From Deltaproteobacteria bacterium (GTDB lineage: Bacteria; Desulfobacterota; Desulfobaccia; Desulfobaccales; 0-14-0-80-60-11), in contig JAKAGH010000001.1 of NCBI GenBank assembly GCA_021817645.1, forward strand, positions 1 through 47,988: DNA of 47,988 nucleotides, read 5' to 3'. A program made the position numbers and the translations under genes. Positions 979 to 38,198 of the stretch are shown piece after piece (position 1 is the stretch's first letter; the number at the start of each line of letters is the position of its first letter). A model generated the notes under the pieces. The model worked only from the letters and a program-made list of their open reading frames with translations. It was not told the origin of the DNA and ran no database searches.

Positions 979-1015
979 CATTGTGACTAAAAAAATTGCG
1001 CGAAGGAGCGCGTTA

Positions 1016-1492: not shown

Positions 1493-1501
1493 GAGTTCAG
1501 C

Positions 1502-2485: not shown

Positions 2486-2516
2486 CTTTTAAGAATACTG
2501 GAGGAGATCTAGGACT

Positions 2517-2912: not shown

Positions 2913-2917
2913 GGCGG

Positions 2918-4086: not shown

Positions 4087-4105
4087 CCCGGAAAAGGGAG
4101 AAGAA

Positions 4106-4375: not shown

Positions 4376-4386
4376 CGGAGCCGCGG

Positions 4387-5163: not shown

Positions 5164-5167
5164 AAGA

Positions 5168-5213
5168 CGGTTTCCGGTTTCCGGTTAAAGAAATAACCGG
5201 AAACCGGAAACCG
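5168..5213. repeat. Perfect 19-bp-stem hairpin built from CGGTTTC/CCGGAAA heptamers, between fliR and flhB
   Basis: CGGTTTCCGGTTTCCGGTT (5168..5186), loop AAAGAAAT, then AACCGGAAACCGGAAACCG (5195..5213). The arms are exact reverse complements. Confidence 0.85.
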
Positions 5214-5228
5214 AAAACGGATTAAGAA

Positions 5229-8410: not shown

Positions 8411-9518
8411 GACATTTTTAGCTCGGGACTTGAAGGATGCCCTGTCTCAAGTGAAAAAGGAGCTGGGGCCGGAAGCGGTGATCCTCTCCACCCAATCCCG
8501 GTGGTTCAAAGAGAACCAGGCCGGCTGGGGCCGGCGGCCGGGGGTGGAAGTGACCGCAGCCGTGGATATGACCGCGTTCCCCAGCAATGGGGACGGCAAC
8601 GGCGATGGCCGGACGGAATGGCTCCCGTCACCCTCGACTCCGGTCAGCCAAATCCAGGAGGATTTGGAAGAAGTCAAGGACCTGCTGCACCAGTGGGTGC
8701 GGCAGAGCGGTCCGCCCTCCTGGCTGATGCAGCACAAAGAACTGACCATGTTTTACCGCTTCCTCACCAGGTCCGGGCTGGATGAGCGCTTCCTGCAGCG
8801 TTGGCTGGATAACGTGCAGGGCATGCTGGAACAACCCGGAGAACAGCCGCTCACCCTCAAAGAGGTGGCCAGCCGTTACTTGATGCAGGCCTTTGAAGTG
8901 GTTGACCCCTGGAAGGCCAAAGATGGCCAGCCCCGCTATTGGGCCTTCATCGGCCCCACCGGTGTGGGCAAGACCACCACCATCGCCAAACTGGCGGCAA
9001 AATTTGGTATCATTGAAAAACATAAAGTTGGATTGATTTCCATGGACAACCAGAGATTGGGCGCCCACAACCAGTTGGCTGCATACGCCCGGCTCGCGGG
9101 GCAGCCCCTGATGGTAGTGCACCAGCGCCAGGAATTGCTGGAGGCCATGGAAAAGCTGGCGGATCTGGATCTGGTCTTGATCGACACTGCCGGCCGCAGC
9201 CCTTATGCCCCGGCGTTGCAGAAAGAATTGCAGGAATCCCTGGGGGAATTGCCGGAATTGGAAAATCATCTGGTGTTGAGCGCCACCACCAAAGAAAGCA
9301 ATCTGATTAATGCCATCAAGCGTTTCAGTGTTCTGCCCATTTCTTCCTATATCATTACTAAACTTGACGAAACCAACGACTTTTCCGCGATCTTTAACCA
9401 ATTGTGCCGTCACCGGGTGCCCGTTTCTTATCTGACTGCGGGCCAACAGGTGCCTGAAGACATCGAACTTTCTTCCCGGCGGCGGGTGACCGAGTTGTTG
9501 CTGCGGCGCCGGAGCTAA
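8400..9518 (+). CDS. flhF: Flagellar SRP-type GTPase FlhF
   Basis: G1 motif GPTGVGKTTTIAKLA and G3 motif DTAGRS are present. It overlaps the flhA end by 11 nt. Confidence 0.9.
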   Translation: MKLKTFLARDLKDALSQVKKELGPEAVILSTQSRWFKENQAGWGRRPGVEVTAAVDMTAFPSNGDGNGDGRTEWLPSPSTPVSQIQEDLEEVKDLLHQWVRQSGPPSWLMQHKELTMFYRFLTRSGLDERFLQRWLDNVQGMLEQPGEQPLTLKEVASRYLMQAFEVVDPWKAKDGQPRYWAFIGPTGVGKTTTIAKLAAKFGIIEKHKVGLISMDNQRLGAHNQLAAYARLAGQPLMVVHQRQELLEAMEKLADLDLVLIDTAGRSPYAPALQKELQESLGELPELENHLVLSATTKESNLINAIKRFSVLPISSYIITKLDETNDFSAIFNQLCRHRVPVSYLTAGQQVPEDIELSSRRRVTELLLRRRS

Positions 9519-9549
9519 GCGCGATTCCAGAGATCAATGGGAGTGGTTT

Positions 9550-10437
9550 ATGAAACCAACCATACTTATTAATGACCCGGACGAACTGGACGAAATGACC
9601 CCAGAGTTGTCCGCGCCATCCCCGCCGCCTTTGCGGATTATTGCCGTAACCTCCGGGAAGGGTGGAGTGGGCAAATCCAACGTGGTGGCCAACCTGGGTG
9701 TGGCCCTGGCCCAAAAAGGGCTCAAGGTCCTCCTTATCGATGCAGACCTGGGTCTGGGCAACCTGGATATCCTCCTGGGACTGGCTCCCCAGTACACCAT
9801 TCATGACGTACTGCAGCTCCGCAAAACCCTGCCGGAGGTCCTGGTGGAGGGGCCGGGGGGCATGAAGATTCTGCCGGCCTCCTCCGGCATCCCGGATCTG
9901 GCGGAACTGGACGAATACCAGAAGATGTTTCTCCTGAACGAATTGGATAATTATTCGGAGAGCATTGATGTGGTGCTGATCGATACCGGGGCCGGCATCT
10001 CCCGCAATGTGCTGTTCTTCAACATTGCGGCCTCCGAGCGGCTGGTGGTGGCCAATAATGAGCCCACCTCCATCACCGACGCCTACGCCTTGATCAAGGT
10101 TCTGGCCACGCAGCACAACGAGCGGCGTTTTAAGCTGCTGGTGAACGGGCTCTCCCAACCCCGGGAAGCGGAGGCGGTGTACCGCACTCTGCTGAAAGTG
10201 TCGGAACGTTTCCTGGGCCGTGACATTTCCCTGGAATATCTGGGCCATATCCCCTATGACGATGCGGTTTCCAAAGCCGTCTTGAAGCAACAACCGGTTT
10301 TGACTCTGTATCCCAAATCCCGGGTCGCCAAGTCCTTTCTCCAGATGGCCCGGAGGCTGTGGGAAATGCCCGCGCCTGATGAAATGGACGGCAATATCAA
10401 GTTCTTTTGGCGGCGCTTGCTGCAATACCAGATTTAG
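9550..10437 (+). CDS. flhG: MinD/ParA-type ATPase FlhG (FleN/YlxH)
   Basis: Deviant Walker A, VTSGKGGVGKSNV. Length is 295 aa, and the gene sits between flhF and fliA. Confidence 0.9.
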   Translation: MKPTILINDPDELDEMTPELSAPSPPPLRIIAVTSGKGGVGKSNVVANLGVALAQKGLKVLLIDADLGLGNLDILLGLAPQYTIHDVLQLRKTLPEVLVEGPGGMKILPASSGIPDLAELDEYQKMFLLNELDNYSESIDVVLIDTGAGISRNVLFFNIAASERLVVANNEPTSITDAYALIKVLATQHNERRFKLLVNGLSQPREAEAVYRTLLKVSERFLGRDISLEYLGHIPYDDAVSKAVLKQQPVLTLYPKSRVAKSFLQMARRLWEMPAPDEMDGNIKFFWRRLLQYQI

Positions 10438-10461
10438 CAGGTTCCAGTGGAAGAGACAGAA

Positions 10462-11253
10462 ATGAAAAAACAAGCATTGGCCCATGACATGTCTGCGGAG
10501 TATTGGCCCGCGGAGGTGGATAATTCCTGGCAAGAGCAGATGGTGCTGCAATATGCGCCTCTGATCAAGTACATCGCCTCTCGCCTGGCGTTGCGCCTGC
10601 CGTCCCATATCTCCCTGGACGATCTGATCAGCTCCGGGATCATCGGCTTGATTGACGCCATCCACAAGTTCGATCCCAGCAAAAACATCAGTTTCAAGAC
10701 CTACGCGGAATTCCGCATCAAAGGCGCCATCCTGGACGAACTGCGCAGCCTGGACTGGATCCCCCGATCGGTGCGCAAAAAGACTCATCTTCTGGAAAAC
10801 GCCTACGCGGAATTACAAAAAACCCTGGGCCGGCCCGCCGAGCCGGAGGAAATAGCCCAGGCCCTGGGCATAGGCATAGAAGAGTTCTACCAGCTGCTGG
10901 ACGAGACCAAGGCGGTTTCTCTGGTGGAACTGGAGGGGGTGTGGAAGGCGATCAGCGGCAGCGCCGAACTCGCGGATAGTGATATGCCCGAAATCCTCCA
11001 GGATGAAAATATCCGGGATCCGTTCATGGCCGTACACTTCTCCCAGCTCCAGGAGGTCATGGTCCGGGGGATCGAGGCTTTGCCTGATAAAGAAAAGTTA
11101 TTGATTTCCCTGTATTACTACGAAGAACTGACCATGAAAGAAATCGGCCAGATCATGGGCTATACCGAATCCCGCATTTCCCAGTTGCATACCCAGGCGA
11201 TGTTGCGCCTCCGGGCCAAGTTGCGGGACCATTTCCAATTTGGAGATAAATAA
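10462..11253 (+). CDS. fliA: Flagellar sigma factor FliA (sigma-28)
   Basis: Sigma-70 family regions 2 (FKTYAEFRIKGAILDELR) and 4.2 (LTMKEIGQIMGYTESRISQLH) are present. ATG at 10462 follows a GGAAGAG; an in-frame GTG at 10447 is an alternative start. Confidence 0.9.
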   Translation: MKKQALAHDMSAEYWPAEVDNSWQEQMVLQYAPLIKYIASRLALRLPSHISLDDLISSGIIGLIDAIHKFDPSKNISFKTYAEFRIKGAILDELRSLDWIPRSVRKKTHLLENAYAELQKTLGRPAEPEEIAQALGIGIEEFYQLLDETKAVSLVELEGVWKAISGSAELADSDMPEILQDENIRDPFMAVHFSQLQEVMVRGIEALPDKEKLLISLYYYEELTMKEIGQIMGYTESRISQLHTQAMLRLRAKLRDHFQFGDK

Positions 11254-17895: not shown

Positions 17896-17951
17896 AAAAT
17901 TTTAGGCAGCGCTCCCAAGCCGTTGGCTGGCCTATTAGATATAAATATTTT

Positions 17952-17989
17952 TTGCGTCTTACCTTGCGCCTTCGCGTCTTGGCGTGAGG
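17952..17989 (-). repeat. Dispersed intergenic repeat, module A, copy a (inverted)
   Basis: The reverse complement reads CCTCACGCCAAGACGCGAAGGCGCAAGGTAAGACGCAA, matching the copies at 19318, 20358, 25130 and 30918. Confidence 0.8.
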
Positions 17990-19317: not shown

Positions 19318-19356
19318 CCTCACGCCAAGACGCCAAGACGCAAAGAGAGACGCAAG
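19318..19356 (+). repeat. Dispersed intergenic repeat, module A, copy b
   Basis: CCTCACGCCAAGACGCCAAGACGCAAAGAGAGACGCAAG, lying directly after the stop at 19301. Confidence 0.8.
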
Positions 19357-19411
19357 AAAAATGGATGGGCCGCAGGCCGATGAGAAACCGTCCCGGATTG
19401 ATCCGGTTAGT

Positions 19412-19470
19412 TGGTGGCACAGGCGTCTCGCCTGTGCTGCCGAGGCGGGTGGGGACGAACGCCGCTACGG
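19412..19470 (+). repeat. Dispersed intergenic repeat, module B (hairpin element), copy 1
   Basis: TGGTGGCACAGGCGTCTCGCCTGTGCTG...GACGAACGCCGCTACGG. The stem is GCACAGGCG/CGCCTGTGC. Confidence 0.8.
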
Positions 19471-19507
19471 ATTTGCCATGTCGCCTGGAGAGGCCAACGG
19501 CCCCAAA

Positions 19508-19543
19508 CTTTGAACCTTGAACCTTGAACTTTGAACCTTGAAC
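19508..19543 (+). repeat. Tandem heptamer array, (C/T)TTGAAC x5, abutting the GT2 start codon
   Basis: CTTTGAAC CTTGAAC CTTGAAC TTTGAAC CTTGAAC, then TAATA-ATG. Confidence 0.85.
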
Positions 19544-19548
19544 TAATA

Positions 19549-20337
19549 ATGAGCGACCTGCCCCCCTTCTACGTCATTACCGTAAATTACCATGCGGGGT
19601 CCTATCTGCCGGAGTTCATTGCTTCCCTGGCGGCGCTGCCGTTTCTGAAGCGGTTGATTATCGTCAACCATTCCCCGGAAGAGAGTCTGGCGGCCTTATC
19701 GGCGCCCTTCCCGCTGCAAGTCATCAATCAGAAGAACGCCGGGTATGGCGCGGGCTTAAACCGGGGGCTGCGGGAGATCGGCGAGAAGAACGCCGTGGCC
19801 TTGCTGTGCAATCCCGACCTGGCCCTGGCGACCCCGGCAAAAGTGGCGGAGGCCCTGGCTTATATGGCCGCGCAGCCCCGGGTGGGCTGCCTGATCCCGC
19901 GCTCCGTGACCTTTGAGGGGCAACCTATTCTGGCCTGCCGGGAGTTTTACACCTGGAAGACCCTGCTCGCTGTCAGGATTGGTTTCTTTCGCCGCGTCTT
20001 TGCCGAGCCTTACCGCCGACACCTGATGCTGGATGCTCCGGTTGAGGGGCCCCTGGAAGTGGACTGGGGCTACGGCGCGGCCATGTTTTTCCGGGTGTCT
20101 GCGTTCGGAGGCGCGCCCGCGTTCGACGAAAACTTTTTCCTTTATATGGAGGACGTGGACCTGTGCGTCAATCTCTGGCGGACCGGCCTCTCTGTGGTTT
20201 CCTATCCGGAGGTGCTCTTCCGGCACCACAGCCAGCGGGACAGCACCCGGCGCTGGCGCTTCCTCCGCTACCATCTGGTCAGCCTGGCGAAATTTATCTG
20301 GAAATACCGCGGCCTGCCGCAACGCTCGATCCGGTGA
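19549..20337 (+). CDS. Family 2 glycosyltransferase
   Basis: The N-terminus FYVITVNYH, the NAGYGAGLNRG motif and the acidic motif YMEDVDLC are typical of GT2 (rhamnosyltransferase-like) enzymes. An in-frame TTG at 19531 inside the repeat array is an alternative start. Confidence 0.85.
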   Translation: MSDLPPFYVITVNYHAGSYLPEFIASLAALPFLKRLIIVNHSPEESLAALSAPFPLQVINQKNAGYGAGLNRGLREIGEKNAVALLCNPDLALATPAKVAEALAYMAAQPRVGCLIPRSVTFEGQPILACREFYTWKTLLAVRIGFFRRVFAEPYRRHLMLDAPVEGPLEVDWGYGAAMFFRVSAFGGAPAFDENFFLYMEDVDLCVNLWRTGLSVVSYPEVLFRHHSQRDSTRRWRFLRYHLVSLAKFIWKYRGLPQRSIR

Positions 20338-20357: not shown

Positions 20358-20395
20358 CCTGACCCAAAGACGCAAACGAGCAAAGAAAGACGCAA
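20358..20395 (+). repeat. Dispersed intergenic repeat, module A, copy c (diverged)
   Basis: CCTGACCCAAAGACGCAAACGAGCAAAGAAAGACGCAA. Confidence 0.65.
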
Positions 20396-20411: not shown

Positions 20412-20470
20412 TGGTGGCGCAGGCGTCTCGCCTGCGCTGACTCGGGCGGACGAGACGCCCGCCGCTACGA
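20412..20470 (+). repeat. Dispersed intergenic repeat, module B (hairpin element), copy 2
   Basis: TGGTGGCGCAGGCGTCTCGCCTGCGCTG...GACGAGACGCCCGCCGCTACGA. The stem is GCGCAGGCG/CGCCTGCGC and differs from copy 1 by a paired A>G / T>C change. Confidence 0.8.
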
Positions 20471-20529
20471 AATTTTTATAACTTGAGTTGAGCCGAAGGC
20501 TCATATTTAACCACACCAGTTTTTTTTAG

Positions 20530-20552: not shown

Positions 20553-22433
20553 ATGTGCGGCATCTGCGGTTTTACCGGGGAATCTGACCCGGCCACGCTC
20601 CAAAAAATGACCCAACGCCTGTGGCATCGCGGCCCGGATGACGACGGCTTTTACCACGATGGCGCGGTGAATCTGGGGATGCGGCGGCTGGCCATCGTCG
20701 ACGTGGAGATGGGGAAACAGCCGCAGTTCAACGAGGACCGGTCCCTGGTGGTGATGCAAAACGGTGAGATCTATAACCACCAGGTCTTGCGGGACGAACT
20801 GGAGCAACGGGGCCACCGCTTCCGCACCCACCACAGCGACACCGAACTCATCCCCCACCTCTACGAGGAATACGGCGAAAACTGGCCGCACCGGGTCAAC
20901 GGCATGTTCGGCGCCGCGCTGTGGGATACTCGGGATAAGAAACTCCTCCTTTACCGGGACCGGATCGGCAAGAAGCCCCTCTACTACGCCGTGAAAAACG
21001 GGCAAATCGTCTTTGCTTCGGAGATCAAGGCCATTCTGGCTCATCCCCTAATTTCCGGAGACCTGGATTACGGGGCCTTGTACCGCTATTTCGCGCTGAA
21101 GAACATCAGCGCCCCCCACACCGCGTTCGCGGACATCCGCCAGTTGCCGCCGGGCCATTTCCTGACCTGGCAATCCGGGCAGATCAAGGCCTGCCGCAGT
21201 TACTGGCAGCCAGATTTCAGTGCGGTCCTGGAGGATATCACCGAAGAGGACGCAGCCCGGCATTTGTTGGAACTCCTACAAGACGCGGTGAAAATCCGGA
21301 TGCAGTGCGATGTGCCTTACGGCGCCTATCTTTCCGGAGGGGTGGACTCCACCGCGGTGGTGGCCTTGATGTGCCAGAACCAGACGCAACCGGTGAAAAC
21401 CTTTTGCCTGGGCTATGAGGATAAGGCGGAAGGCCAGTTTGTGGGCAAATCCCAGGACCTCTATTTCGCCCGCACCATGTCGAAACAATTGGGGACCGAG
21501 CACTATGAATACATCATTAATGCCGCCCAGTTTGCGGAGCAAATGCCTGCAATCATGGCCGCGTTTGATGAGCCTTTTTCCGGCACGGTCTCCACTTTTT
21601 TTCTCTCCATCCTGATTAAACAGCATGTCAAAGTAGCCCTATCCGGAGACGGTGCGGACGAACTTTTCGGCAGTTACCTGGCCCACCGCCTGGCCCTGCC
21701 CCTGGAGCGCTACCTCGGCCTGGCCGCCGGCGGCAAGGCTTCTTGGCAGGACTTGACCGGAACAGAGCGCGGCTCCCTAACCCCTTTTGACACCCCCGAG
21801 CAGTTTGCCTTCCTGCAACGCATCGCCTCTCCCAGCCTGGCGGTCTGGCGCCGCCGCCTGGGAGTCTTCCAGGAAGACGAACTCCAGCAAATGCTGACTA
21901 CGGATTTCTTGCAGCGCGCCGCGAATCCGGGCCAACCGGACCCTTACCAGGAGTTGGAGCCCCGTCTCAGCGCCAGGGATAGCCTGAACAAAAATCTGGA
22001 GCTGGACCAGTTGGAGCTGCTGCCCAACCAGGTCCTGCCCTTTGTGGACCGGCTCTCCATGGCTCATGCCATCGAAGTGCGATGCCCCTATCTCGACTAC
22101 CGCCTCATCGACTTTGCGGACCGGTTGCCAGGGAGGCTGAAGATCAAAAACGGCGTGGTCAAACACCTCCACAAACTCGCGGTCTCCAAACTGCTGCCAG
22201 CGGAGCTGGTGCAGCGCCCCAAGGAAGGTTTTGTGCAGCCCGTTTACTCCTGGATGCGCGGCAGCTTGCAAGACTGGGTGGAGCGCCGCCTGGACGCGCT
22301 CCCAGATAGCGTGTTTAACCGGGACTTTATTGTCAACCTGCGAGGGGCTTTTAGAGAAGGGAAGCCGGGGCTGGAAGCCAAAATTTGGAATTTACTCTGT
22401 TTCGGTTTATTCTATAAGCAGCATGGCCGTTAA
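20553..22433 (+). CDS. Asparagine synthase (glutamine-hydrolysing)-like amidotransferase 1
   Basis: It has an MCGICGF N-terminal nucleophile Cys and the PP-loop YLSGGVDSTAVVALM. Length is 626 aa. Confidence 0.9.
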   Translation: MCGICGFTGESDPATLQKMTQRLWHRGPDDDGFYHDGAVNLGMRRLAIVDVEMGKQPQFNEDRSLVVMQNGEIYNHQVLRDELEQRGHRFRTHHSDTELIPHLYEEYGENWPHRVNGMFGAALWDTRDKKLLLYRDRIGKKPLYYAVKNGQIVFASEIKAILAHPLISGDLDYGALYRYFALKNISAPHTAFADIRQLPPGHFLTWQSGQIKACRSYWQPDFSAVLEDITEEDAARHLLELLQDAVKIRMQCDVPYGAYLSGGVDSTAVVALMCQNQTQPVKTFCLGYEDKAEGQFVGKSQDLYFARTMSKQLGTEHYEYIINAAQFAEQMPAIMAAFDEPFSGTVSTFFLSILIKQHVKVALSGDGADELFGSYLAHRLALPLERYLGLAAGGKASWQDLTGTERGSLTPFDTPEQFAFLQRIASPSLAVWRRRLGVFQEDELQQMLTTDFLQRAANPGQPDPYQELEPRLSARDSLNKNLELDQLELLPNQVLPFVDRLSMAHAIEVRCPYLDYRLIDFADRLPGRLKIKNGVVKHLHKLAVSKLLPAELVQRPKEGFVQPVYSWMRGSLQDWVERRLDALPDSVFNRDFIVNLRGAFREGKPGLEAKIWNLLCFGLFYKQHGR

Positions 22434-22450
22434 AATACAGTTTTTAGTTC

Positions 22451-22480
22451 TTGGTTTTAGTAAAATAATCACAATATAAT
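22451..22480 (+). promoter_or_regulatory. Candidate sigma-70 promoter for the GNAT-rSAM-rSAM unit
   Basis: TTGGTT-18 nt-TATAAT within an AT-rich 115-bp spacer. Confidence 0.3.
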
Positions 22481-22548
22481 TAGTATATTAAATAGATGGT
22501 TTGTTGCCTTTGGTTCGATATGCCGGAAGGGATAAGCGGGGCAATCTG

Positions 22549-23073
22549 ATGATGATGGGCAAAAAGGTGCGGTTGGTCCACCTGGAGAAAGAGGATCTGG
22601 CCAAGTCCCAGGGCTGGGTCAATGACCCGGCAATCAAAGCCCTGATGCTCCGGGTGCTGCCGGTGACTCGGATGGACCAGGAAAAGTGGCTGGAGGACAT
22701 TGCCCGGAACCCCGCCAAGATGGTGTTCGCCATCAAGCTGCTGGGCACCGGCGAGCATATCGGCAACACGGGTTTTTACCAGATCGATTGGCTGCACCGG
22801 CGGGCGGAATTCTGGATCTTGATCGGCGAACGCGGCTCTTGGGGCCAGGGGGTGGGCACCGAAGTGGTGCGGCTCATGCTGCGCTTTGGTTTTGGCGACC
22901 TCAATTTGCACAAAATATATTTGCACGTGGGCAGCACCAACGAACCAGCCATTTCCCTATACAAAAAGCTCAATTTCGCCGTCGACGGGAGGCTCCGGGA
23001 GCACTATTTCCTGGAGGGCAATTATCTCGATGTGCTGGCCATGTCAATTTTAAAAAAAGATTATGCCGGCTAA
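22549..23073 (+). CDS. GNAT family N-acetyltransferase (RimJ/RimL-like)
   Basis: The acetyl-CoA binding motif WGQGVGTEVVRLML and the C-terminal NEPAISLYKKLNF are present. ATG cluster at 22549. Confidence 0.8.
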   Translation: MMMGKKVRLVHLEKEDLAKSQGWVNDPAIKALMLRVLPVTRMDQEKWLEDIARNPAKMVFAIKLLGTGEHIGNTGFYQIDWLHRRAEFWILIGERGSWGQGVGTEVVRLMLRFGFGDLNLHKIYLHVGSTNEPAISLYKKLNFAVDGRLREHYFLEGNYLDVLAMSILKKDYAG

Positions 23074-24013
23074 AAGTGACCATCGCCGCGCGGACCGCAC
23101 CGCCGAGGCCGAGGATTTCCCCCGGGTGATCCTCCTCGATAATTGCAACGCCTGCAATCTGCGCTGCTCCATGTGCGACCACCAGAACGTCAAGAAGTTC
23201 CGGAAAATCCAGCTCATGGATTTTAAGTTGTATCAGCGCCTCATCGACGAGATTGCCCGGGAAAACCCCGGAGCCCGGGTCTGGGAGATTTTCTTCGGCG
23301 ACCCTTTCATGTGCCGGGATATGGCGGAACGCATCCGCTACGCCAAGGAGCAAGGATTAAAGGACGTAGTACTCAACTCCAACGGCGTGCTGATGACCGC
23401 GCGCCGGGCCCGGGCCGTAATCGAGGCCGGGCTGGACGCCATGTACGTGGGCATCGACGCGGCCACGGAGGAGACTTACAACCGTATCCGGGTGGGTGGG
23501 GATTTCTCCAGGGCCGTGGCCCAGACTCTGGGATACCGGGACTTGCTCTTAAAGTATGGTACGGACCGGCAGAAATTGTTCGTCCAATTCGTGGTGAGCG
23601 AACTTAATGAAAGCGAAGTGGAGAGCTTCACCGCGTTCTGGAGCCGGGCGGGGGTGAACGTCAAGATCCGCCCCAAAGTGAGTTGGGCCGGTCTGGTGGA
23701 GGCCAACAATCTCCAGGCCAACGCCGCGCTGGAGCGCCGCCCCTGCTACTGGCTGATGCAGACCATCAATATCTGCGCGGACGGGGAGGTGGCCCTGTGT
23801 GCGGTGGACGTTCACTGCCGGGTGAAGTGCGGCAATGCCCGGGAGCATACTATCAAGGAATTGTGGCATGCCCAGCTGCAAGAGTATCGCCGCCTCCATA
23901 AAGAAGGCCGCTTCGACGCCCTGCCGGAGATGTGCCGGGAGTGCCCGGACTGGCAATCCGGCTATGCGGACTATGTCCAATCCCAACCCCAAGCGCAAGC
24001 AGGATGTTCATGA
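23063..24013 (+). CDS. Radical SAM protein with a SPASM/twitch-like Cys-rich C-terminus (paralog 1)
   Basis: CNLRCSMC gives the CxxxCxxC cluster. The C-terminus reads CYWLMQTINICADGEVALCAVDVHCRVKCGN...CRECPDW. It overlaps the GNAT stop by 11 nt. Confidence 0.85.
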   Translation: MPAKSDHRRADRTAEAEDFPRVILLDNCNACNLRCSMCDHQNVKKFRKIQLMDFKLYQRLIDEIARENPGARVWEIFFGDPFMCRDMAERIRYAKEQGLKDVVLNSNGVLMTARRARAVIEAGLDAMYVGIDAATEETYNRIRVGGDFSRAVAQTLGYRDLLLKYGTDRQKLFVQFVVSELNESEVESFTAFWSRAGVNVKIRPKVSWAGLVEANNLQANAALERRPCYWLMQTINICADGEVALCAVDVHCRVKCGNAREHTIKELWHAQLQEYRRLHKEGRFDALPEMCRECPDWQSGYADYVQSQPQAQAGCS

Positions 24014-24975
24014 CCGAACTACATACCCAGGAAACCTATACCGTCCGGGAGGCAGCCCGGGATTTTCCCATGATGGTGGTGCTGTCTTTCGTCTATGTCT
24101 GCAATGCCCAATGTCCCAACTGCCCCTATAACAACTCGGAGATCCGGGCCACTTATAAAGACGCCCTGATCATGCCGCCGGACCTCTTCCGGCAGATCGC
24201 GGACGAATGCGGCCCCCATGGGGCCATGCTGAGGATCTCCGGCGGCGGCGAGCCCATGCTGCACCCCCAGGCGGTGGAGCTCATGGTTTACGCCAAGGAG
24301 CGGGGCGCCCGGGTGGGGCTGATCACCAACGGCTCCCGCTTTACCGAGGAGTCTCTCACCGCGCTGATCACGGCGGACCTGGACGCCATCGAGTTTTCCG
24401 TGGACGCGGGCGATGCCGCCACCTACCGCCTGGTGCGGCCCGGCCTCGATTGGGACCGGCTCAATGCCAGCGTGCGCCTGGCCGCGGCTCTGCGGGAACG
24501 CCTGCATGCTGGCACCCGCCTCATTGTCAGCGTCATTAACCAGCAGGGGGTGGATGTGGCCGCGGCCGAGGCCCACTGGTCGCGCCTGGTGGATAAGGTG
24601 CAGATCCGCAAATACCTCACCTGGGGCTACAACGAAGACCTATCGGCGGACCCTTCGCCCTATCTTCCCCCGGAGCAGCGTATCCCCTGCCCCTGGCTCT
24701 TCGAGCGCCTCAATATCGACTCCCGGGGCGACGTGACCCTGTGCGGAGAAGATATCGCTTTTGCCGAAAAATTTGCCAACATCAGAGAAAGGTCCATTAA
24801 AGAGATTTGGAATGGGCCGGAATTTCAACATCTCCGGGACCTGCATCTGGCCCGGCGGGGCGAAGAGATCGCCATCTGCTCCCGGTGCCCGGATTGGAAA
24901 TACCGGTCCTGGCAATACAATTACTGGAAGGTGCTGCGGGATGCGGAAATGAAGCGCCAGTCCCGGCAAAGCTGA
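24004..24975 (+). CDS. Radical SAM protein with a SPASM/twitch-like C-terminus (paralog 2)
   Basis: CNAQCPNC gives the CxxxCxxC cluster, and the GGGEPMLHP motif is present. The C-terminus reads CPWLFERLNIDSRGDVTLCGED...CSRCPDW. The start is ATG at 24004 or 24010; the latter forms an ATGA overlap with the upstream stop. Confidence 0.85.
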   Translation: MFMTELHTQETYTVREAARDFPMMVVLSFVYVCNAQCPNCPYNNSEIRATYKDALIMPPDLFRQIADECGPHGAMLRISGGGEPMLHPQAVELMVYAKERGARVGLITNGSRFTEESLTALITADLDAIEFSVDAGDAATYRLVRPGLDWDRLNASVRLAAALRERLHAGTRLIVSVINQQGVDVAAAEAHWSRLVDKVQIRKYLTWGYNEDLSADPSPYLPPEQRIPCPWLFERLNIDSRGDVTLCGEDIAFAEKFANIRERSIKEIWNGPEFQHLRDLHLARRGEEIAICSRCPDWKYRSWQYNYWKVLRDAEMKRQSRQS

Positions 24976-25061
24976 AATCTCTCTCGCCACCCGTTCAAGG
25001 GACTTGGCTCAGCCATAAAGTTGATAAATCAGGCAGTCAAGGAATTGGCGGGCAGTGCCCA

Positions 25062-25087
25062 CCCTAAAACAACTTGTTGTTTTAGGG
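25062..25087 (+). terminator. Hairpin, candidate intrinsic terminator after rSAM paralog 2
   Basis: CCCTAAAACAA-CTTG-TTGTTTTAGGG, a perfect 11-bp stem, followed by AATAATTTTGTTG. Confidence 0.45.
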
Positions 25088-25129
25088 AATAATTTTGTTG
25101 AGAAGGGACTGCCTTTGATTTCCATTATT

Positions 25130-25155
25130 TTGCGCCTTGGCGTCTTTGCGTGAGG
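25130..25155 (-). repeat. Dispersed intergenic repeat, module A, copy d (inverted, short)
   Basis: The reverse complement reads CCTCACGCAAAGACGCCAAGGCGCAA. Confidence 0.75.
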
Positions 25156-25177
25156 ACTATCTCTTCGGAACAGCAAA

Positions 25178-25912
25178 ATGACCAACTCGCAGTTTCCGGC
25201 CTCCGGCAAAATAATCGGTATCCTCCAGCCCGGCTATCTGCCCTGGCTGGGTTTTTGGGAGCAGTTGCACGCCACCGATATCTTTGTGATTTATGATGAT
25301 GTGCAGTATGATAAGCATGGCTGGCGCAACCGCAACCGGATCAAGACCCCCCAGGGCCCCCAGTGGCTGACCGTCCCCGTCCGGGTGAATTTCTCCCAGG
25401 GGCCGCTGATCTTGGAAGTGAAAGTAAATAATCGGGAGAATTGGCGCAAGAAACATCTTTTTTCCATCCGGCAGAATTACGCCAGGGCGCCTTTTTTCAG
25501 CCGTTATATCGACTTTTTTGCCGAGGCTTACCAGCGGGACTGGGAATATCTCATCGACCTGGACCTGCATCTGCTCCGCCACCTGGCGGCCTTCCTGGGG
25601 ATCGACCCGGCGAAAATCGTCAGGTCTTCCAGCCTGGAGGTGACGGGTGACCGGATCACCAGGCTGATCGGCATCTGCCAAAAACTAGGGGCCGCCACTT
25701 TTTATGAAGGGGCCTCGGGCCGCAACTATATCGAGACGGCCGCGTTCCGGGAGCAGGGGATCGAGGTGGTTTACCAGGATTACCACCATCCGGTGTATCC
25801 TCAGCTTTACGGAGATTTTATTGCCAACCTGTCGATTATCGACCTTCTTTTTAACTGTGGGGATGAGAGTTTGGCCATCCTGACCCACCAAAATTCGGGG
25901 GAGCCGAAGTAG
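25178..25912 (+). CDS. WbqC-like family protein
   Basis: The N-terminal signature ILQPGYLPWLGFWEQL...FVIYDDVQYDKHGWRNRNRI resembles the WbqC family (function unknown, found in O-antigen loci). Confidence 0.7.
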   Translation: MTNSQFPASGKIIGILQPGYLPWLGFWEQLHATDIFVIYDDVQYDKHGWRNRNRIKTPQGPQWLTVPVRVNFSQGPLILEVKVNNRENWRKKHLFSIRQNYARAPFFSRYIDFFAEAYQRDWEYLIDLDLHLLRHLAAFLGIDPAKIVRSSSLEVTGDRITRLIGICQKLGAATFYEGASGRNYIETAAFREQGIEVVYQDYHHPVYPQLYGDFIANLSIIDLLFNCGDESLAILTHQNSGEPK

Positions 25913-26950
25913 ATGGGCAAGACCGTACTGATTACCGGCGGCGCCGGTTTTATGGGCAGCAATTTCGTCAGCTATCTCTACAATAAGTATCCTGATTATA
26001 AGATCATCGTCCTGGATGCCCTGACCTATGCCGGCAGCATCGACAACCTGCCGGTGAATCTCAATGAAGCCAACGGCGGCCGGCTGGTATTCTGGTACGG
26101 CAACGTGCGCAACGCCGAACTGGTGGACACCCTGATGTCCCAGGCAGATGTGGTGGTCCATTTTGCCGCGGAAACCCACGTAACCCGCTCCATTTATGAC
26201 AATTTTCTCTTTTTTGAGACCGATGTCCTGGGCACCCAGACCATTGCCAATGCATCCTTGAAATACCGGGACCGGGTGGAGCGCTTCATTCACATCTCCT
26301 CTTCGGAAGTCTATGGCACCGCCCTGGGCGAGCGGATGGCGGAAGACCACCCGCTGCTGCCCCTGAGCCCTTACGCCTCTGCCAAGGCCGGGGCCGACCG
26401 CCTGGTTTATTCTTATTGGGCCACCTACGAACTGCCGGTCATCATCCTGCGACCTTTTAACAATTTTGGCCCCAGGCAGCACCTGGAGAAGGCCATTCCC
26501 CGCTTCATCACCAGCTGTATCCTGGATGAGCCCATCCGGGTGCACGGCGACGGCAGCGCGGCCCGGGATTATATCTTTGTGGGCGACCTCTGCCGGGCTT
26601 TAGACTTATTCCTGCAAGCCGACCCCGGGCAGGTGGCCGGCCAGGTTTTCAATGTGGCCACCGGGGAGCACCGCTCCATTCTCTCCATTGCCCGGGACAT
26701 CGTGCGCCTGATGGGCAAAGACGAGAGCATCATCACTTTTGTGGGGGACCGGCCGGGCCAGGTCTTCAGGCATACCGGGGATATCGCCAAGCTGCAGGGC
26801 CGCTTCGGCTGGCAGCCTCAAGTCGGCTGGCAGGACGGCCTGCAACAGACCATCCAGTGGTATGAGCAGAACCGCCCCTGGTGGGAAAAGCAGCTGTGGA
26901 TGCGGGCGGTGCCCATCATTACCAAATCGGGCAAGCGGGAACTGCATTAA
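25913..26950 (+). CDS. NDP-hexose 4,6-dehydratase (RfbB-like SDR)
   Basis: TGGAGFMGSN Rossmann motif, HFAAETHV, and the catalytic YxxxK in PYASAKAG. The start directly abuts the WbqC-like stop. Confidence 0.85.
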   Translation: MGKTVLITGGAGFMGSNFVSYLYNKYPDYKIIVLDALTYAGSIDNLPVNLNEANGGRLVFWYGNVRNAELVDTLMSQADVVVHFAAETHVTRSIYDNFLFFETDVLGTQTIANASLKYRDRVERFIHISSSEVYGTALGERMAEDHPLLPLSPYASAKAGADRLVYSYWATYELPVIILRPFNNFGPRQHLEKAIPRFITSCILDEPIRVHGDGSAARDYIFVGDLCRALDLFLQADPGQVAGQVFNVATGEHRSILSIARDIVRLMGKDESIITFVGDRPGQVFRHTGDIAKLQGRFGWQPQVGWQDGLQQTIQWYEQNRPWWEKQLWMRAVPIITKSGKRELH

Positions 26951-28294: not shown

Positions 28295-29518
28295 ATGAAG
28301 GCAAAATTTTATTTTCTGCCATTATTGCTGCTTTATGTGGCTATCATTCTCTTAGCCTACCATAATAATTTGCAGGACGACGAAATCCGCTACGTAACTT
28401 TCGCCAGGAATTTATCCCAAGGTTTTTATAGCCCCGCCGATAACATTAATCTCTGGAGCGGCCCCGGTTATCCGCTGCTGCTGTTGCCCTTCGTAATCTT
28501 GAAATTAGATGGCCTGCCCATCAAAATACTGAATGCCTTTTTGTTATTTTTTGCCGTTATCTACTTTTACAATACCTTAAAAATATATTTGGATCAGAAA
28601 TACGCCCTATATATCTCATATATCCTAGGCTTATACCCGCCGATCTTGCGGGATCTACACATGATCCTGACCGAAACTTTTGTCTGCTTTCTTATTTGCG
28701 GGTTTATTTACCATTTCTGCAAGCTTCTGCAACATGAGGCCACAAATAGATTTCATCTGGTCATTGCCTCTTTGTACCTGGCGTTTATCGCCCTGACCAA
28801 AATAATATTTGGATATGTGATATTAATAGTAATCGCAATATTTTTTGTAGTCTCCGCGATAAGACGAAAAAAGAGCGTGATGAAAGTATTAGCCGTTAAT
28901 ATCATCGCCATGCTTTTCTGTTTGCCCTATCTTTTTTATACTTATTCACTTACCGGTAAGATGTTTTATTGGGGAACTTCCGGGGGCATGTCCCTCTATT
29001 GGATGTCCACTCCTTACAGCGGCGAACTTGGCAATTGGTGTGATTGGAGTCAGGTATATGCGCAGCCGCAGTTATATGCCAACCATCATCAATTTTTTGA
29101 CCGGATTGCCCCGCTGGACAACGTGCAGCGGGACGAAGAGTTCAAGAAACAAGGATTAAGAAACATCTGGGCGCATCCGCAGAAATTTCTGGCAAACTGG
29201 ATGTGTAATCTGGGACGCCTGTTGTTTTCTTATCCTTTTTCTTATAAACTCCAATCACCCACAACATTCTTTTATTTAATACCTAATATGTTTTTGGTGG
29301 TCCTCTCAATTTTATGTATTTACCCCACGATAACAAGGTACCACAATGTACCATTTGAAATAATTATTCTTCTTTTAATATCTGTCATATATTTAGGCGG
29401 ATCAACCTTGCTCAGTGCTTATGAAAGGCAATTACGCCCGATTTTCCCCATTTTATTCTTATGGATATCTTTCACCTTGTTGAGAATTATGGAAATCAGG
29501 ATACGTGCGGCTGATTAA
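28295..29518 (+). CDS. GT-C fold membrane glycosyltransferase (ArnT/PMT-like), AT-rich
   Basis: 407-aa polytopic protein. The first loop carries LQDDEIRYVTFARNL...GPGYPLLLLPF, resembling the acidic DE/DD motif of GT39/GT83-type enzymes. Its composition is markedly more AT-rich than its neighbours. Confidence 0.5.
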   Translation: MKAKFYFLPLLLLYVAIILLAYHNNLQDDEIRYVTFARNLSQGFYSPADNINLWSGPGYPLLLLPFVILKLDGLPIKILNAFLLFFAVIYFYNTLKIYLDQKYALYISYILGLYPPILRDLHMILTETFVCFLICGFIYHFCKLLQHEATNRFHLVIASLYLAFIALTKIIFGYVILIVIAIFFVVSAIRRKKSVMKVLAVNIIAMLFCLPYLFYTYSLTGKMFYWGTSGGMSLYWMSTPYSGELGNWCDWSQVYAQPQLYANHHQFFDRIAPLDNVQRDEEFKKQGLRNIWAHPQKFLANWMCNLGRLLFSYPFSYKLQSPTTFFYLIPNMFLVVLSILCIYPTITRYHNVPFEIIILLLISVIYLGGSTLLSAYERQLRPIFPILFLWISFTLLRIMEIRIRAAD

Positions 29519-29770: not shown

Positions 29771-30913
29771 ATGGAAAAAATCGAATTTTTCAAACACAAT
29801 CTGACCGAAGAAGACCTGGACCGGGCCTGTCAGGTGATGCGCTCCACCTTTCTCACCACCGGGCCCCAGGTGGCGGCCTTTGAAAAGAAGCTCGCCCAGT
29901 ATCTGGACAGCCCCGAGGCGGTGGGCCTGACCAGCTGCACCGGGGCCATGCACCTGGTCCTCCTGAAGCACGGCATCGGTGAAGGCGATGAAGTCATCAC
30001 CACTCCCATGACCTTTGTGGCCACGGCTACGGCGATCCTGGAAGCGGGGGCCACCCCGGTCTTTGTGGATGTCTGCCCCCAGAGCGGGCTGCTCCTCCCG
30101 GAGGCCGTGGACGCGGCCGTCTCTCCCAAAACCAGGGCTATTCTGCCGGTACATCTTTATGGGCGGATGGTGGACATGCGGGGCTTTGCCCGGGTGGCGG
30201 CCAAGCACGGCCTGTTGCTCCTGGAAGATGCGGCCCATTGCCTGGAAGGCAGCCGGGACCAGGTGCGGCCGGGACAACTCAGCGCCGCGGCCTGTTTCTC
30301 CTTTTACGCCACCAAGAGCATGACTTGCGGGGAAGGAGGGGCCCTGGTGTGCCGTTCCCCGGAAGACGCGGCCTGGTACCGCTCGGCCCGGCACCATGGC
30401 ATCTCCAAGAACGCCTCCTCCCGCTATACCCAGAAATACGAACATTGGGACATGGAGATGATGGGCTGGAAATACAACATGGATGACATCCAGGCGGCCC
30501 TGCTCCTGCATCAGATTGACCGCCTGGACACCTACCGCCAGCGGCGCCAGGATTTGGAAAACCTTTACCGGGAATTGCTGGCGGACGTGGCCGGCCTCGA
30601 TTTTCTGGAGGCCCCGGCCCCGGGAGAGCTAAGCGGCCACCATCTGCTTACCGTGCTTTTGCCGCCCCAGGTGGACCGGGACGAAGTCATCAGGTTGGTG
30701 CAGGAGATGGGAGTGGGCTGCGCCGTCAATTACCGGGCCGTGCACGTGCTCCGCTATTTCCGGGAGCGCTACGGCTACCGGCCCGAGGACTTCCCCAACG
30801 CTTATCAGATCGGCCAGAGGACCATCAGCCTGCCCCTTTATCCCCGGCTGACGGAGGCGGAAGTGACCCGGGTCTGCGATACCTTGAAAAAAGTGGTCTC
30901 TGCTTCCAAATGA
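29771..30913 (+). CDS. DegT/DnrJ/EryC1/StrS family PLP-dependent sugar aminotransferase
   Basis: The PLP-lysine motif FSFYATKSMTCGEGGALV is present. Length is 380 aa. Confidence 0.9.
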   Translation: MEKIEFFKHNLTEEDLDRACQVMRSTFLTTGPQVAAFEKKLAQYLDSPEAVGLTSCTGAMHLVLLKHGIGEGDEVITTPMTFVATATAILEAGATPVFVDVCPQSGLLLPEAVDAAVSPKTRAILPVHLYGRMVDMRGFARVAAKHGLLLLEDAAHCLEGSRDQVRPGQLSAAACFSFYATKSMTCGEGGALVCRSPEDAAWYRSARHHGISKNASSRYTQKYEHWDMEMMGWKYNMDDIQAALLLHQIDRLDTYRQRRQDLENLYRELLADVAGLDFLEAPAPGELSGHHLLTVLLPPQVDRDEVIRLVQEMGVGCAVNYRAVHVLRYFRERYGYRPEDFPNAYQIGQRTISLPLYPRLTEAEVTRVCDTLKKVVSASK

Positions 30914-30917
30914 TAGT

Positions 30918-30947
30918 CCTCACGCCAAGGCGCCAAGAAAGACGCAA
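30918..30947 (+). repeat. Dispersed intergenic repeat, module A, copy e
   Basis: CCTCACGCCAAGGCGCCAAGAAAGACGCAA, lying directly after the DegT stop. Confidence 0.8.
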
Positions 30948-38113: not shown

Positions 38114-38198
38114 GGTGACTTGCGGCCGGTGATGTGCCACCAGGGTATAATACTAGAATCTCAAGCTATCCTTGCCACCCAGGATTGACCTCCGGATC

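Follow-up and report, generated by a model that had tools for sequence, protein, structure and literature searches.

Two paralogous radical SAM proteins and an N-acetyltransferase as the core of a conserved, probable nucleotide-sugar tailoring cassette in a bacterial surface-polysaccharide locus

The analysed window, a stretch of 47,988 nucleotides from a Desulfobaccales-like bacterium, included a surface-polysaccharide locus of the Wzx/Wzy type. Three overlapping genes on its forward strand encoded a SpeG/RimL-like GNAT N-acetyltransferase (22549..23073; PF13302), a radical SAM protein with a Cys-rich, SPASM-like C-terminal domain (rSAM1, 23063..24013; PF04055 and PF13186) and a paralogous radical SAM protein with a four-Cys twitch-type domain (rSAM2, 24010..24975; PF04055 and PF13186). 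The ORF check agreed with the earlier note on this layout: the GNAT and rSAM1 genes shared 11 nt, and the rSAM1 stop codon (24011-24013) gave an overlap with rSAM2 of 4 nt when the ATG at 24010 was used and of 10 nt with the ATG at 24004. In a 97%-identical relative, the annotated start of rSAM2 was the equivalent of 24010. Both proteins (316-321 aa) carried the CxxxCxxC motif and the shared C-x2-CPDW end that had been ascribed to them, namely CNLRCSMC and MCRECPDW in rSAM1 and CNAQCPNC and ICSRCPDW in rSAM2, and their proposed paralogy was borne out by 31% identity over 292 residues (E 5e-37).

The spacer preceding the GNAT gene (22434..22548) had a GC content of 33%, compared with 57% for the window, and in it a weak -35 element (TTGGTT) stood 18 nt upstream of a perfect TATAAT (22475-22480). 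It had been described as promoter-like; its AT-richness and its TATAAT were confirmed, but the -35 element was weak and the consensus promoter scan called nothing in the spacer, the sequence of which was not conserved in the closest relative (L086, 95% identical). It may hold an internal promoter. Downstream of rSAM2, the 11-bp hairpin (25062..25087, forward strand) said to close the operon was real, but it was a weak terminator-like site, AT-rich with four G-C pairs, a poor T-tail and a fold z-score of only -1.46. It was located in an indel-variable spacer, where positions 24974-25128 of the window stood in place of a 1347-bp stretch of L086 that contained a GalU-like nucleotidyltransferase gene.

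The flanking genes considered here lay on the same strand. AsnB1 (20553..22433), the first gene of the cassette described below, encoded a glutamine-dependent amidotransferase of the asparagine-synthase family (GATase_7 and Asn_synthase domains; TIGR01536 at 436 bits, over the cut-off), and both the nucleophile Cys2 in the N-terminus MCGICGF and the PP-loop SGGVDS were retained. Directly after rSAM2 was a gene for a WbqC-family protein (25178..25912; PF08889, 269 bits), whose AF2 model (pLDDT 87.6) had no significant fold match in the PDB; no PDB sequence match was found either, and none of the TyrRS-like Foldseek hits reached significance (E of 0.14 and above). The next gene encoded an RmlB-like NDP-hexose 4,6-dehydratase (25913..26950; PF16363) that fell short of the TIGR01181 cut-off (324 bits, cut-off 365) and was 57-80% identical to the copies in cassettes elsewhere. 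After a Wzx gene and one gene of no assigned function came the gene for an ArnB/PseC-like C4 aminotransferase of the DegT family (29771..30913; PF01041, 363 bits), which reached 318 bits with the PseC model and 276 bits with the ArnB model, each below its cut-off, and had ArnB as its best solved relative (E 4e-68).

The earlier note had presented the triad as a discrete operon, which did not hold: the borders of the triad were not kept in relatives, where the median gaps were 43 bp from AsnB to GNAT and 72 bp from rSAM2 to WbqC, and the triad was the core of a larger cassette of seven genes in the order AsnB, N-acyltransferase, rSAM1, rSAM2, WbqC, RmlB-like 4,6-dehydratase and ArnB/PseC-like aminotransferase. 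This cassette recurred in species genomes of more than 10 phyla, with carriers in Desulfobacterota, Nitrospirota, Planctomycetota, Omnitrophota, Elusimicrobia, Riflebacteria, Negativicutes and other groups, and the same gene set was present on Pfam-annotated contigs of Desulfohalovibrio, Fundidesulfovibrio and a Brocadiaceae MAG. Orthologs of rSAM1 across phyla were 64-97% identical and those of rSAM2 67-96%, with an identity between phyla of about 70% for both. Among the loci whose rSAM1 was at least 55% identical, AsnB (27/38), rSAM2 (25/38), WbqC (21/38), RmlB (17/38) and DegT (16/38) lay within 8 kb of it, and only three of the 38 had an orphan rSAM1. The sugar context noticed in the window was also that of the orthologs, which travelled with AsnB, WbqC, the dehydratase and the aminotransferase in a sample of 80 species-representative genome loci. 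The adjacent pairs counted there were WbqC>RmlB (36), rSAM2>WbqC (29), rSAM1>rSAM2 (26), rSAM1>AsnB (23), AsnB>GNAT (15), GNAT>rSAM1 (14, median gap -2) and DegT>rSAM1 (11); AsnB adjoined either GNAT or rSAM1 in 38 loci, and DegT adjoined RmlB in 25. Many cassettes also held an ArnC-like GT2, a flippase-like protein and an 800-aa GT-C-like protein. The set was not invariant, as some genomes had the cassette without rSAM2 and one cassette bearing a fusion protein was without AsnB, so that the two radical SAM proteins need not act sequentially on one substrate. Genes of an rSAM1-like branch of low identity were found in non-sugar contexts, which counts against the nucleotide-sugar reading given below. 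Our literature search found no paper on the cassette.

The two radical SAM proteins differed in their auxiliary cysteines. Both belonged to the superfamily, with PF04055 scores of 63.1 bits (rSAM1) and 58.7 bits (rSAM2) against a Pfam cut-off of 29.5, and the CxxxCxxC motif (C31-x3-C35-x2-C38 in rSAM1) was invariant in the 25-sequence alignment of each. The SPASM model PF13186 matched both as well (37.8 and 48.6 bits, cut-off 21.5). A SPASM domain binds two extra [4Fe-4S] clusters through seven or eight conserved C-terminal Cys residues (PMC9477430), and a twitch domain binds one through three or four (PMC9477430, PMC9012708). In the alignment, rSAM1 had eight invariant Cys besides C31, C35 and C38, comprising C84 and the seven C-terminal residues C228, C238, C246, C252, C256, C291 and C294, a number sufficient for two clusters. 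Compared with the canonical spacing used here (CX9-15GX4C ... CX2CX5CX3C ... C), rSAM1 held C228-x12-G-x4-C246, but the order of the remainder, C246-x5-C252-x3-C256 ... C291-x2-C294, was different; the low-identity branch was without C84, C238, C252 and C256. rSAM2 had exactly four invariant auxiliary Cys, spaced C-x17-C ... C-x2-C. The pair had been called SPASM/twitch; by Cys count, only rSAM1 has enough for a two-cluster SPASM domain, and rSAM2 is twitch-type.

In the PDB, both sequence and profile searches put BtrN first among the solved relatives of rSAM1 and rSAM2. This twitch dehydrogenase has an aminocyclitol as its substrate and ligates its auxiliary cluster through four Cys residues (PMC9012708). 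The match extended to the hairpin Cys of the twitch domain and to the CxxC, and these two elements of rSAM2 aligned to the BtrN twitch domain (E 8e-11). By fold the relationship was remote: the alignment to BtrN had 15-18% identity and a TM score of about 0.55, and the Foldseek neighbours of the rSAM1 AF2 model (pLDDT 80.5) were only generic radical SAM proteins, with DesII scoring no better than MoaA, anSME, BtrN, SuiB or EpeE. DesII did not appear among the phmmer or profile matches of either protein to the PDB. The Pfam and NCBIfam classification that had been proposed placed neither protein in an already characterised family. No curated NCBIfam cut-off was reached by either, and the NCBIfam matches listed included no curated model for BtrN. 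The spiro-SPASM model TIGR04321 gave 98.2 bits for rSAM1 and 62.9 bits for rSAM2 against a cut-off of 250, with the matches confined to model positions of about 224-505 of 510, the model including an N-terminal domain.

The GNAT belonged to its superfamily by PF13302 (73.1 bits, cut-off 25.4) and PF00583 (45.8 bits, cut-off 20.7), and its best solved relative was SpeG (E 4e-23), with PseH at E 1.6e-6. It remained below the NCBIfam cut-offs for PseH (TIGR03585, 62.9 against 93.1) and SpeG (NF011709, 84.1 against 218). On these sequence comparisons it is closest to the SpeG-type amine acetyltransferases, and its likeness to PseH is weak. The position of the gene was a variable acyltransferase slot, which in other loci was occupied by an ArnA/Fmt-like formyltransferase of the folate type, a small GNAT or a hexapeptide transferase. 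One relative encoded an rSAM/SPASM-GNAT fusion within a cassette of rSAM, WbqC, SDR and DegT genes, and another encoded a hexapeptide-transferase-rSAM fusion protein.

Gene content and sequence relationships suggest that the triad probably forms the centre of a conserved cassette for the tailoring of nucleotide sugars, in which a UDP- or dTDP-4-amino-4,6-dideoxyhexose would be modified by radical chemistry. From family membership, the RmlB-like enzyme would form the 4-keto-6-deoxy sugar from an NDP-hexose that is probably UDP- or dTDP-glucose, the ArnB/PseC-like transaminase would produce the 4-amino-4,6-dideoxy sugar, and the GNAT would cap an amine with an acetyl group, replaced by formyl or another acyl group in other genomes. 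Hints to the nucleotide were the resemblance of DegT to ArnB and PseC and the GalU-like gene in the cassette of the closest relative. By analogy, each radical SAM protein would cleave SAM and remove a hydrogen from one of the carbons in the sugar or in its N-linked substituent. The auxiliary cluster may then take up the electron as in BtrN, for a net two-electron oxidation of CH-OH to a ketone, and this ketone might be aminated by the same aminotransferase, as BtrS does in 2-deoxystreptamine synthesis, or re-reduced to the epimer. BtrN-type oxidation as the particular reaction is a tentative proposal drawn from this analogy. Oxidation, epimerisation, dehydration, decarboxylation and C-C coupling all occur as reactions of relatives in this clade, and homology therefore could not tell which type applies here. 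On the product, AsnB might finally amidate a carboxylate, and WbqC might add or rearrange some group. A point against this reading is that AsnB needs a carboxylate, which is not an obvious feature of a 6-deoxy amino sugar; WbqC, being without a fold match, is also left unexplained by it.

An alternative that we consider unlikely, though less so than the others, is that the radical SAM proteins act on an amino-acid-derived N-acyl substituent and not on the sugar ring. WbqC would put an amino acid on the 4-amino group, and the alpha-amine of that amino acid would be capped by the GNAT, the formyltransferase or the hexapeptide enzyme. The aminoacyl carbon would be epimerised or altered in some other way by one or both radical SAM proteins, in the manner of radical SAM peptide epimerases, and AsnB would amidate the carboxylate that is left. 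This would supply the missing carboxylate and explain both the exchangeable capping enzymes and the tight pairs rSAM2-WbqC and rSAM1-AsnB, and the AsnB-free cassette would fit if amidation were an optional last step. SpeG, the nearest relative of the GNAT, acetylates primary alkyl amines, and EpeE-type epimerases were among the fold neighbours. WbqC takes its name from the E. coli O121 cluster, and the O121 O-antigen presumably bears an N-acetylglycyl-amino sugar, which would also favour this alternative. A further point for it is that WbqC in actinomycetes is found in one operon with a dedicated ProRS and tRNA (PMC10404621). On the other side, no ligase or aminoacyl transferase matched WbqC by fold, the TyrRS-like hits lacked significance, and WbqC-DegT pairs occurred in some genomes without any radical SAM gene, so that the chemistry of WbqC needs no radical steps.

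The earlier note had relied on the DesI/DesII logic, in which the product of the aminotransferase would be radically deaminated to a 3-keto-4,6-dideoxy sugar. The conserved partnership with a DegT aminotransferase and a 4,6-dehydratase agreed with it, and DesII structures were in the Foldseek list (E about 1e-9, TMq 0.56-0.61), but their score was no better than those of the other radical SAM neighbours, and the PDB sequence and profile matches were led by BtrN with DesII missing. Loss of the amine would also rob the conserved N-acyltransferase of its obvious substrate, and the second radical SAM protein, AsnB and WbqC would stay unexplained. Deamination of this type is improbable on these grounds, and BtrN with BtrS was the better analogy, BtrN being the best solved relative and DesII a generic fold neighbour.

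Elp3 abstracts a hydrogen from the methyl group of acetyl-CoA and adds the resulting acetyl radical to its substrate. In an Elp3-like route, the GNAT would present acetyl-CoA, rSAM1 would take the methyl hydrogen, and the radical would add to a sugar carbon, giving a C-carboxymethyl branch that AsnB converts to carbamoylmethyl. The rSAM-GNAT fusion with Elp3 domain order in a homologous cassette, the tight order AsnB, GNAT and rSAM1 with the GNAT overlapping rSAM1, and the provision of a carboxylate for AsnB pointed to this route. In many loci, however, a formyltransferase or hexapeptide transferase occupied the GNAT slot while AsnB and rSAM1 stayed, so that acetyl-CoA fits poorly as radical donor; in addition, the fusion-bearing cassette was without AsnB, and by sequence the GNAT was a plain SpeG-like amine acetyltransferase. 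The route is decidedly improbable.

Finally, it is very unlikely that the pair are maturases of RiPPs or proteins and neighbours of sugar genes only by chance, because neither a conserved small ORF nor a peptide-recognition domain was found. As the earlier note had observed for the window, no precursor-like ORF was adjacent, and the search extended to related loci gave no conserved precursor gene: among 418 intergenic small ORFs of about 80 loci, no family occurred in more than three loci, the families common to up to three were antisense shadows, and the spacers of the window had only non-conserved ORFs of 23-32 aa. No Pfam match to an RRE/PqqD domain was found in either protein, with the radical SAM core beginning at about residue 25; the proteins were short, and their synteny with sugar genes extended across more than 10 phyla. 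The SPASM matches in both proteins favoured a maturase role, as did weak matches to many NCBIfam peptide-maturase models, although every one of these was far under its cut-off (26-81 bits against 265-850). A distant tandem-rSAM relative, 28% identical, belonged to a RiPP-like cluster that also contained a 57-aa ORF and a C39 peptidase, and this likewise counts against the nucleotide-sugar reading.

For the nucleotide-sugar cassette, it is quite possible that an undescribed family of surface sugars is made in many, mostly anaerobic, phyla by radical chemistry at the nucleotide-sugar stage, as part of primary cell-envelope synthesis, with poly-aminated, carbon-branched or amino-acid-bearing amidated 4-amino-4,6-dideoxyhexoses as candidate products; WbqC would then be a new fold with a new activity. 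Sugar tailoring by radical SAM enzymes is known almost only from antibiotic pathways (BtrN, DesII, AprD4 and NeoN), and here the same enzyme class was embedded in cell-surface glycan loci. Identification of the product would give bacterial glycobiology a new sugar or sugar family and would provide functions for two large unnamed radical SAM families and for the widespread orphan family WbqC (PF08889). The cassette is also a testable case of how two paralogous twitch/SPASM enzymes split work on a small molecule, and experiments are within reach because Sporomusa ovata DSM 2662, Desulfohalovibrio reitneri and Fundidesulfovibrio agrisoli carry it and are in culture.

Among known systems, the RiPP maturases AlbA, PqqE, SuiB and EpeE share the Radical_SAM and SPASM architecture and are fold neighbours, but the window had no precursor gene, RRE, nearby peptidase or exporter, and its neighbours were sugar genes. 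The resemblance to Elp3, a radical SAM-GNAT enzyme for carboxymethylation of tRNA U34, consisted of the same domain order in the fusion protein and of a neighbouring amidotransferase that recalls the conversion of cm5U to ncm5U; it is an analogy only, the GNAT here being replaceable by a formyltransferase. In the PseB/PseC/PseH and ArnA/ArnB/ArnC pathways, the nearest counterparts of DegT were ArnB and PseC, the GNAT was weakly PseH-like, and the alternative ArnA/Fmt-like formyltransferase and the ArnC-like GT2 of many cassettes added to the likeness to Arn. Nevertheless, the cut-offs for PseC, PseH and ArnB were not reached, the dehydratase was RmlB-like and not PseB- or ArnA-like, and both pathways are without radical SAM enzymes, AsnB and WbqC. 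The DesI/DesII pathway has the same upstream logic, in which a C4 aminotransferase follows a 4,6-dehydratase, and acts on TDP-4-amino-4,6-dideoxyglucose; the two systems have in common the general idea of a deoxy-amino sugar being changed by radical chemistry while linked to a nucleotide. The conserved N-acyltransferase here, however, argues that the amine is retained, and DesII is not known to have a twitch/SPASM auxiliary cluster. The system with most in common was BtrN/BtrS of butirosin and 2-deoxystreptamine synthesis. Like the proteins of the window, BtrN is a short single chain with a DegT-family aminotransferase as partner, it shares with rSAM2 a four-Cys auxiliary site made of a hairpin Cys and a C-terminal CxxC, and its substrate is a small carbohydrate-like molecule (PMC9012708). 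In contrast to BtrN, which belongs to an antibiotic cluster and acts on an aminocyclitol, the cassette was set in a cell-surface polysaccharide locus with a nucleotide sugar as the likely substrate, comprised two paralogs of which rSAM1 had four further invariant Cys, and kept AsnB and WbqC, which have no Btr counterpart, as conserved neighbours.

The triad formed by GNAT, rSAM1 and rSAM2 belongs to a larger conserved cassette, which lies in a surface-polysaccharide locus spanning 18.0 to ~41 kb of the window. The locus started with a Wzy-like gene and a GT2-like gene, followed by AsnB1 (20553-22433, with catalytic Cys2 and the PP-loop retained), GNAT, rSAM1, rSAM2, WbqC (25178-25912) and an RmlB-like 4,6-dehydratase (25913-26950). 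The dehydratase was followed by Wzx, a low-GC membrane protein without family assignment, DegT (29771-30913), glycosyltransferases, AsnB2 and one more glycosyltransferase, and the locus ended with a WecA-like transferase, a LIC_10190-family membrane protein and a GDSL-like protein. The three overlapping ORFs described in the earlier note were confirmed by the ORF coordinates. GNAT (22549-23073) overlapped rSAM1 (23063-24013) by 11 nt, and the rSAM1 stop overlapped the rSAM2 start by 4 nt from the ATG at 24010 or by 10 nt from the ATG at 24004; a 97%-identical homolog from a Desulfobaccales MAG was annotated with the start equivalent to 24010. Pfam analysis showed that Radical_SAM and SPASM exceeded the gathering score in both rSAM proteins and that GNAT matched PF13302, consistent with the domain calls made from the sequence. 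The CxxxCxxC and terminal C-x2-CPDW motifs were present in both rSAM proteins, and the proposed paralogy was borne out by 31% identity over 292 residues (E 5e-37). The upstream spacer, previously read as promoter-like, had 33% GC vs 57% for the window and a perfect TATAAT at 22475-22480, but its -35 was weak and it was not flagged by a consensus scan. Similarly, the 11-bp hairpin at 25062-25087 existed, but its stem was AT-rich, its T-tail poor and its z-score unremarkable. The idea of a discrete operon did not hold, as the neighbors in relatives were tightly spaced and the borders differed in the closest relative, a Desulfobaccales contig (L086) with 95% DNA identity across the triad. The upstream spacer of L086 differed from that of the window, and an insert of 1.35 kb carrying a GalU-like nucleotidyltransferase lay exactly at the hairpin spacer, so that window 24974-25128 (the 155-bp spacer and hairpin) corresponded to L086 11912-13258, with the GalU-like gene between rSAM2 and WbqC. 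Because tight same-strand spacing was found across the cassette in relatives, the borders are local and not conserved. L086 also carried an additional 415-aa methyltransferase-like gene after Wzx, compared with the window.

At E 1e-10 or better, over 1,200 relatives were retrieved for each rSAM. The best 120 of these for each were 64-97% identical, came from several phyla and carried no more specific name than “radical SAM/SPASM domain-containing protein” or the like. The sole match in a plasmid collection was one remote sequence. Pfam-annotated contigs showed the order AsnB, GNAT, rSAM1, WbqC, dehydratase, DegT, AsnB without rSAM2 in Desulfohalovibrio reitneri, AsnB, GNAT, rSAM1, rSAM2, GT2, WbqC, dehydratase in Fundidesulfovibrio agrisoli, and rSAM1, AsnB, hexapeptide transferase, WbqC in a Brocadiaceae MAG. 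A scan in which each GTDB species was represented by a single genome yielded 80 loci, onto which the window proteins were mapped; these loci were distributed in Desulfobacterota, Nitrospirota, Planctomycetota, Omnitrophota, Elusimicrobia, Riflebacteria, Lentisphaerae, Dehalococcoidia, Bacillota (including Sporomusa ovata DSM 2662), Saccharibacteria and others. Within 8 kb of rSAM1 in the 38 loci with at least 55% rSAM1 identity, AsnB was found in 27/38, rSAM2 in 25/38, WbqC in 21/38, dehydratase in 17/38 and DegT in 16/38, and only 3/38 had none of these. The adjacent same-strand pairs were WbqC-dehydratase (36 loci, median gap 28 bp), rSAM2-WbqC (29 loci, 72 bp), rSAM1-rSAM2 (26 loci, 56 bp), dehydratase-DegT (25 loci, 28 bp), rSAM1-AsnB (23 loci, 20 bp), AsnB-GNAT (15 loci, 43 bp), GNAT-rSAM1 (14 loci, -2 bp) and DegT-rSAM1 (11 loci, 67 bp).

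ORF clustering across all loci revealed that the GNAT position was occupied elsewhere by an Fmt/ArnA-like formyltransferase, a small unrelated GNAT or a CysE/EpsC-like hexapeptide transferase; such exchangeable enzymes are the usual pattern of N-acyl diversification in amino sugars. An exhaustive representative search at E 1e-30 or better gave 288 clusters (50% identity), whose proteins were mostly 300-340 aa long. In one relative, an rSAM/SPASM protein was fused to a C-terminal GNAT in the context rSAM, rSAM-GNAT, WbqC, SDR, DegT, SDR, without AsnB, and in another a hexapeptide transferase was fused to an rSAM. Tandem rSAM-rSAM fusions were not counted as support for the pair because they occurred at 28% identity in a RiPP-like multi-rSAM cluster. 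Many cassettes also contained an ArnC-like GT2, a flippase-like protein, a methyltransferase and an 800-aa GT-C-like protein, and these additions suggest a lipid-carrier route of the Arn type there.

No NCBIfam model reached its cut-off for GNAT, rSAM1, rSAM2 or WbqC, and the best rSAM score was that of spiro-SPASM (98 bits vs a cut-off of 250). In both single-sequence and profile searches, the best solved relative of the two rSAM proteins was BtrN (profile E 1e-12 for rSAM1 and 8e-11 for rSAM2), followed by tetraether lipid synthase and the sugar-nucleoside decarboxylase BlsE. BtrN, a dehydrogenase with a twitch domain, converts an aminocyclitol alcohol to a ketone and has an auxiliary cluster with four Cys ligands (PMC9012708). 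The Cys of the twitch hairpin and the CxxC at the C-terminus fell within the BtrN alignments, and rSAM2 had four invariant auxiliary Cys in the twitch pattern. The rSAM1 clade of the window had the same four together with C84, C238, C252 and C256, a complement that would be enough for a second cluster, with non-canonical spacing. The AF2 model of rSAM1 (pLDDT 80.5) had only generic Foldseek neighbors (MoaA, DesII, anSME, BtrN, SkfB, SuiB, EpeE, PqqE and viperin, TM 0.5-0.6), and therefore no substrate was inferred from the structure. A lower-identity rSAM1 branch (43-49%) had only the four auxiliary Cys, without C84, C238, C252 and C256, and many of its members were found in a permuted cassette (DegT, rSAM1, AsnB, acyltransferase, rSAM2, WbqC, dehydratase). 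About 14 members had no cassette gene within 8 kb, and the five of these that were inspected had non-sugar gene surroundings. A conserved ...CSMCFHK... motif was seen in this branch (related loci L051, L053, L060, L065, L077 and others); solitary genes in non-sugar contexts came from Burkholderiales, Eremiobacterota, Selenomonadaceae and Vulcanimicrobiota, and the rSAM1-like gene adjoined another radical-SAM-like gene in L060 and L077.

DegT was nearest to ArnB (E 4e-68) and PseC, which are C4 aminotransferases for UDP-4-keto sugars. The 4,6-dehydratase and a C4 aminotransferase would yield an NDP-4-amino-4,6-dideoxyhexose, and the acyltransferase would cap an amine; both steps are supported, as is the proposal that rSAM1 and rSAM2 would act on that small molecule and not on a peptide. 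GNAT itself was nearest to SpeG, with a weak likeness to PseH. By analogy, a BtrN-like oxidation appears to be the most economical model for the rSAM step: hydrogen would be abstracted at a carbinol carbon, an electron would be lost to the auxiliary cluster to give a ketone, and the ketone could be re-aminated by DegT or re-reduced to the epimer. In the BtrN pathway, the ketone is used by a DegT-family aminotransferase. However, AsnB requires a carboxylate, which leaves the tightest partner of rSAM1 unexplained by the BtrN-like oxidation, and WbqC is given no role. The main rival, in which the radical step would modify an N-acyl group derived from an amino acid and placed by WbqC, accounts better for AsnB and the capping enzymes but depends on a putative activity of WbqC. 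This protein had no match in the PDB by phmmer, and its confident AF2 model had no significant Foldseek fold match there either; TyrRS/NaMNAT-like matches were set aside as weak (E 0.14 or worse). WbqC-DegT pairs also occurred in rSAM-free loci, such as BT2884-85 of B. thetaiotaomicron. WbqC has been called uncharacterised (PMC5532660), and in actinomycetes it lies beside a dedicated ProRS and tRNA (PMC10404621). The idea that Cj1324/PtmG might be a WbqC homolog was dropped, since it is described in the literature as an amidotransferase. DesII-type deamination, which the earlier note had listed among its candidates by analogy with DesI/DesII, is less likely than these two models, as is Elp3-like carboxymethylation. 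Peptide maturation is also less likely: ORFs of 18-100 aa from all six frames of the intergenic regions near the rSAMs were clustered across all loci, and no conserved small ORF was found, in line with the original failure to see a precursor.

A ~45-nt intergenic element made of 8-9-nt sub-repeats (TTGCGYCTT...) with the core GCGYCTTSGCGTCTTKGCGTGAGG was located at 17945-17989 (+), 19318-19362 (-), 25129-25173 (+) and 30900-30947 (-), with a degenerate copy at 20370-20395. Three copies had the full core (0 expected by chance), one was shorter and one degenerate. Inverted copies flanked Wzy as well as the block running from WbqC to DegT, and the element was also present in L086; its copies could serve as regulator sites or as a junction for module shuffling. 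The GT2/NTP-transferase-like gene at 19531-20337 lay between the two copies of a 63-nt direct repeat (19412-19474 and 20412-20474, 78% identity). The 407-aa low-GC (~43%) ORF at 28295-29518, between Wzx and DegT, had only a faint PMT_2 match and 75% DNA identity to the relative vs 86-94% for its neighbors, and may be a polymerase or glycosyltransferase specific to the serotype. The 576-aa LIC_10190-family protein (38172-39902, 319 bits vs a cut-off of 100) lay beside the GDSL-like protein; the family takes its name from Leptospira. An Rfam search of the whole window gave no match.

A flagellar export/regulation block (920-11253; FliL, FliM, FliP, FliR, FlhB, FlhA, FlhF, FlhG, FliA) preceded the polysaccharide locus by ~7 kb, with genes for a DnaJ-hemerythrin protein, adenine deaminase and an OCD-family dehydrogenase in between, and no link between this block and the cassette was found. 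Flagellin glycosylation was considered, but because of the ~7 kb of unrelated genes and the Wzx, Wzy and WecA-like genes in the locus, the product is more likely a polysaccharide repeat unit than a flagellin glycan.

No curated family covered rSAM1 or rSAM2, and no description of an rSAM, WbqC and AsnB cassette was found in the literature. The cassette is a real, widespread, uncharacterised and testable system. Radical SAM tailoring of sugars is a known kind of chemistry, and the reaction of the cassette may be an ordinary oxidation or epimerisation; what is new is a conserved cassette that joins twin rSAMs to AsnB and WbqC in the surface-glycan loci of many phyla.
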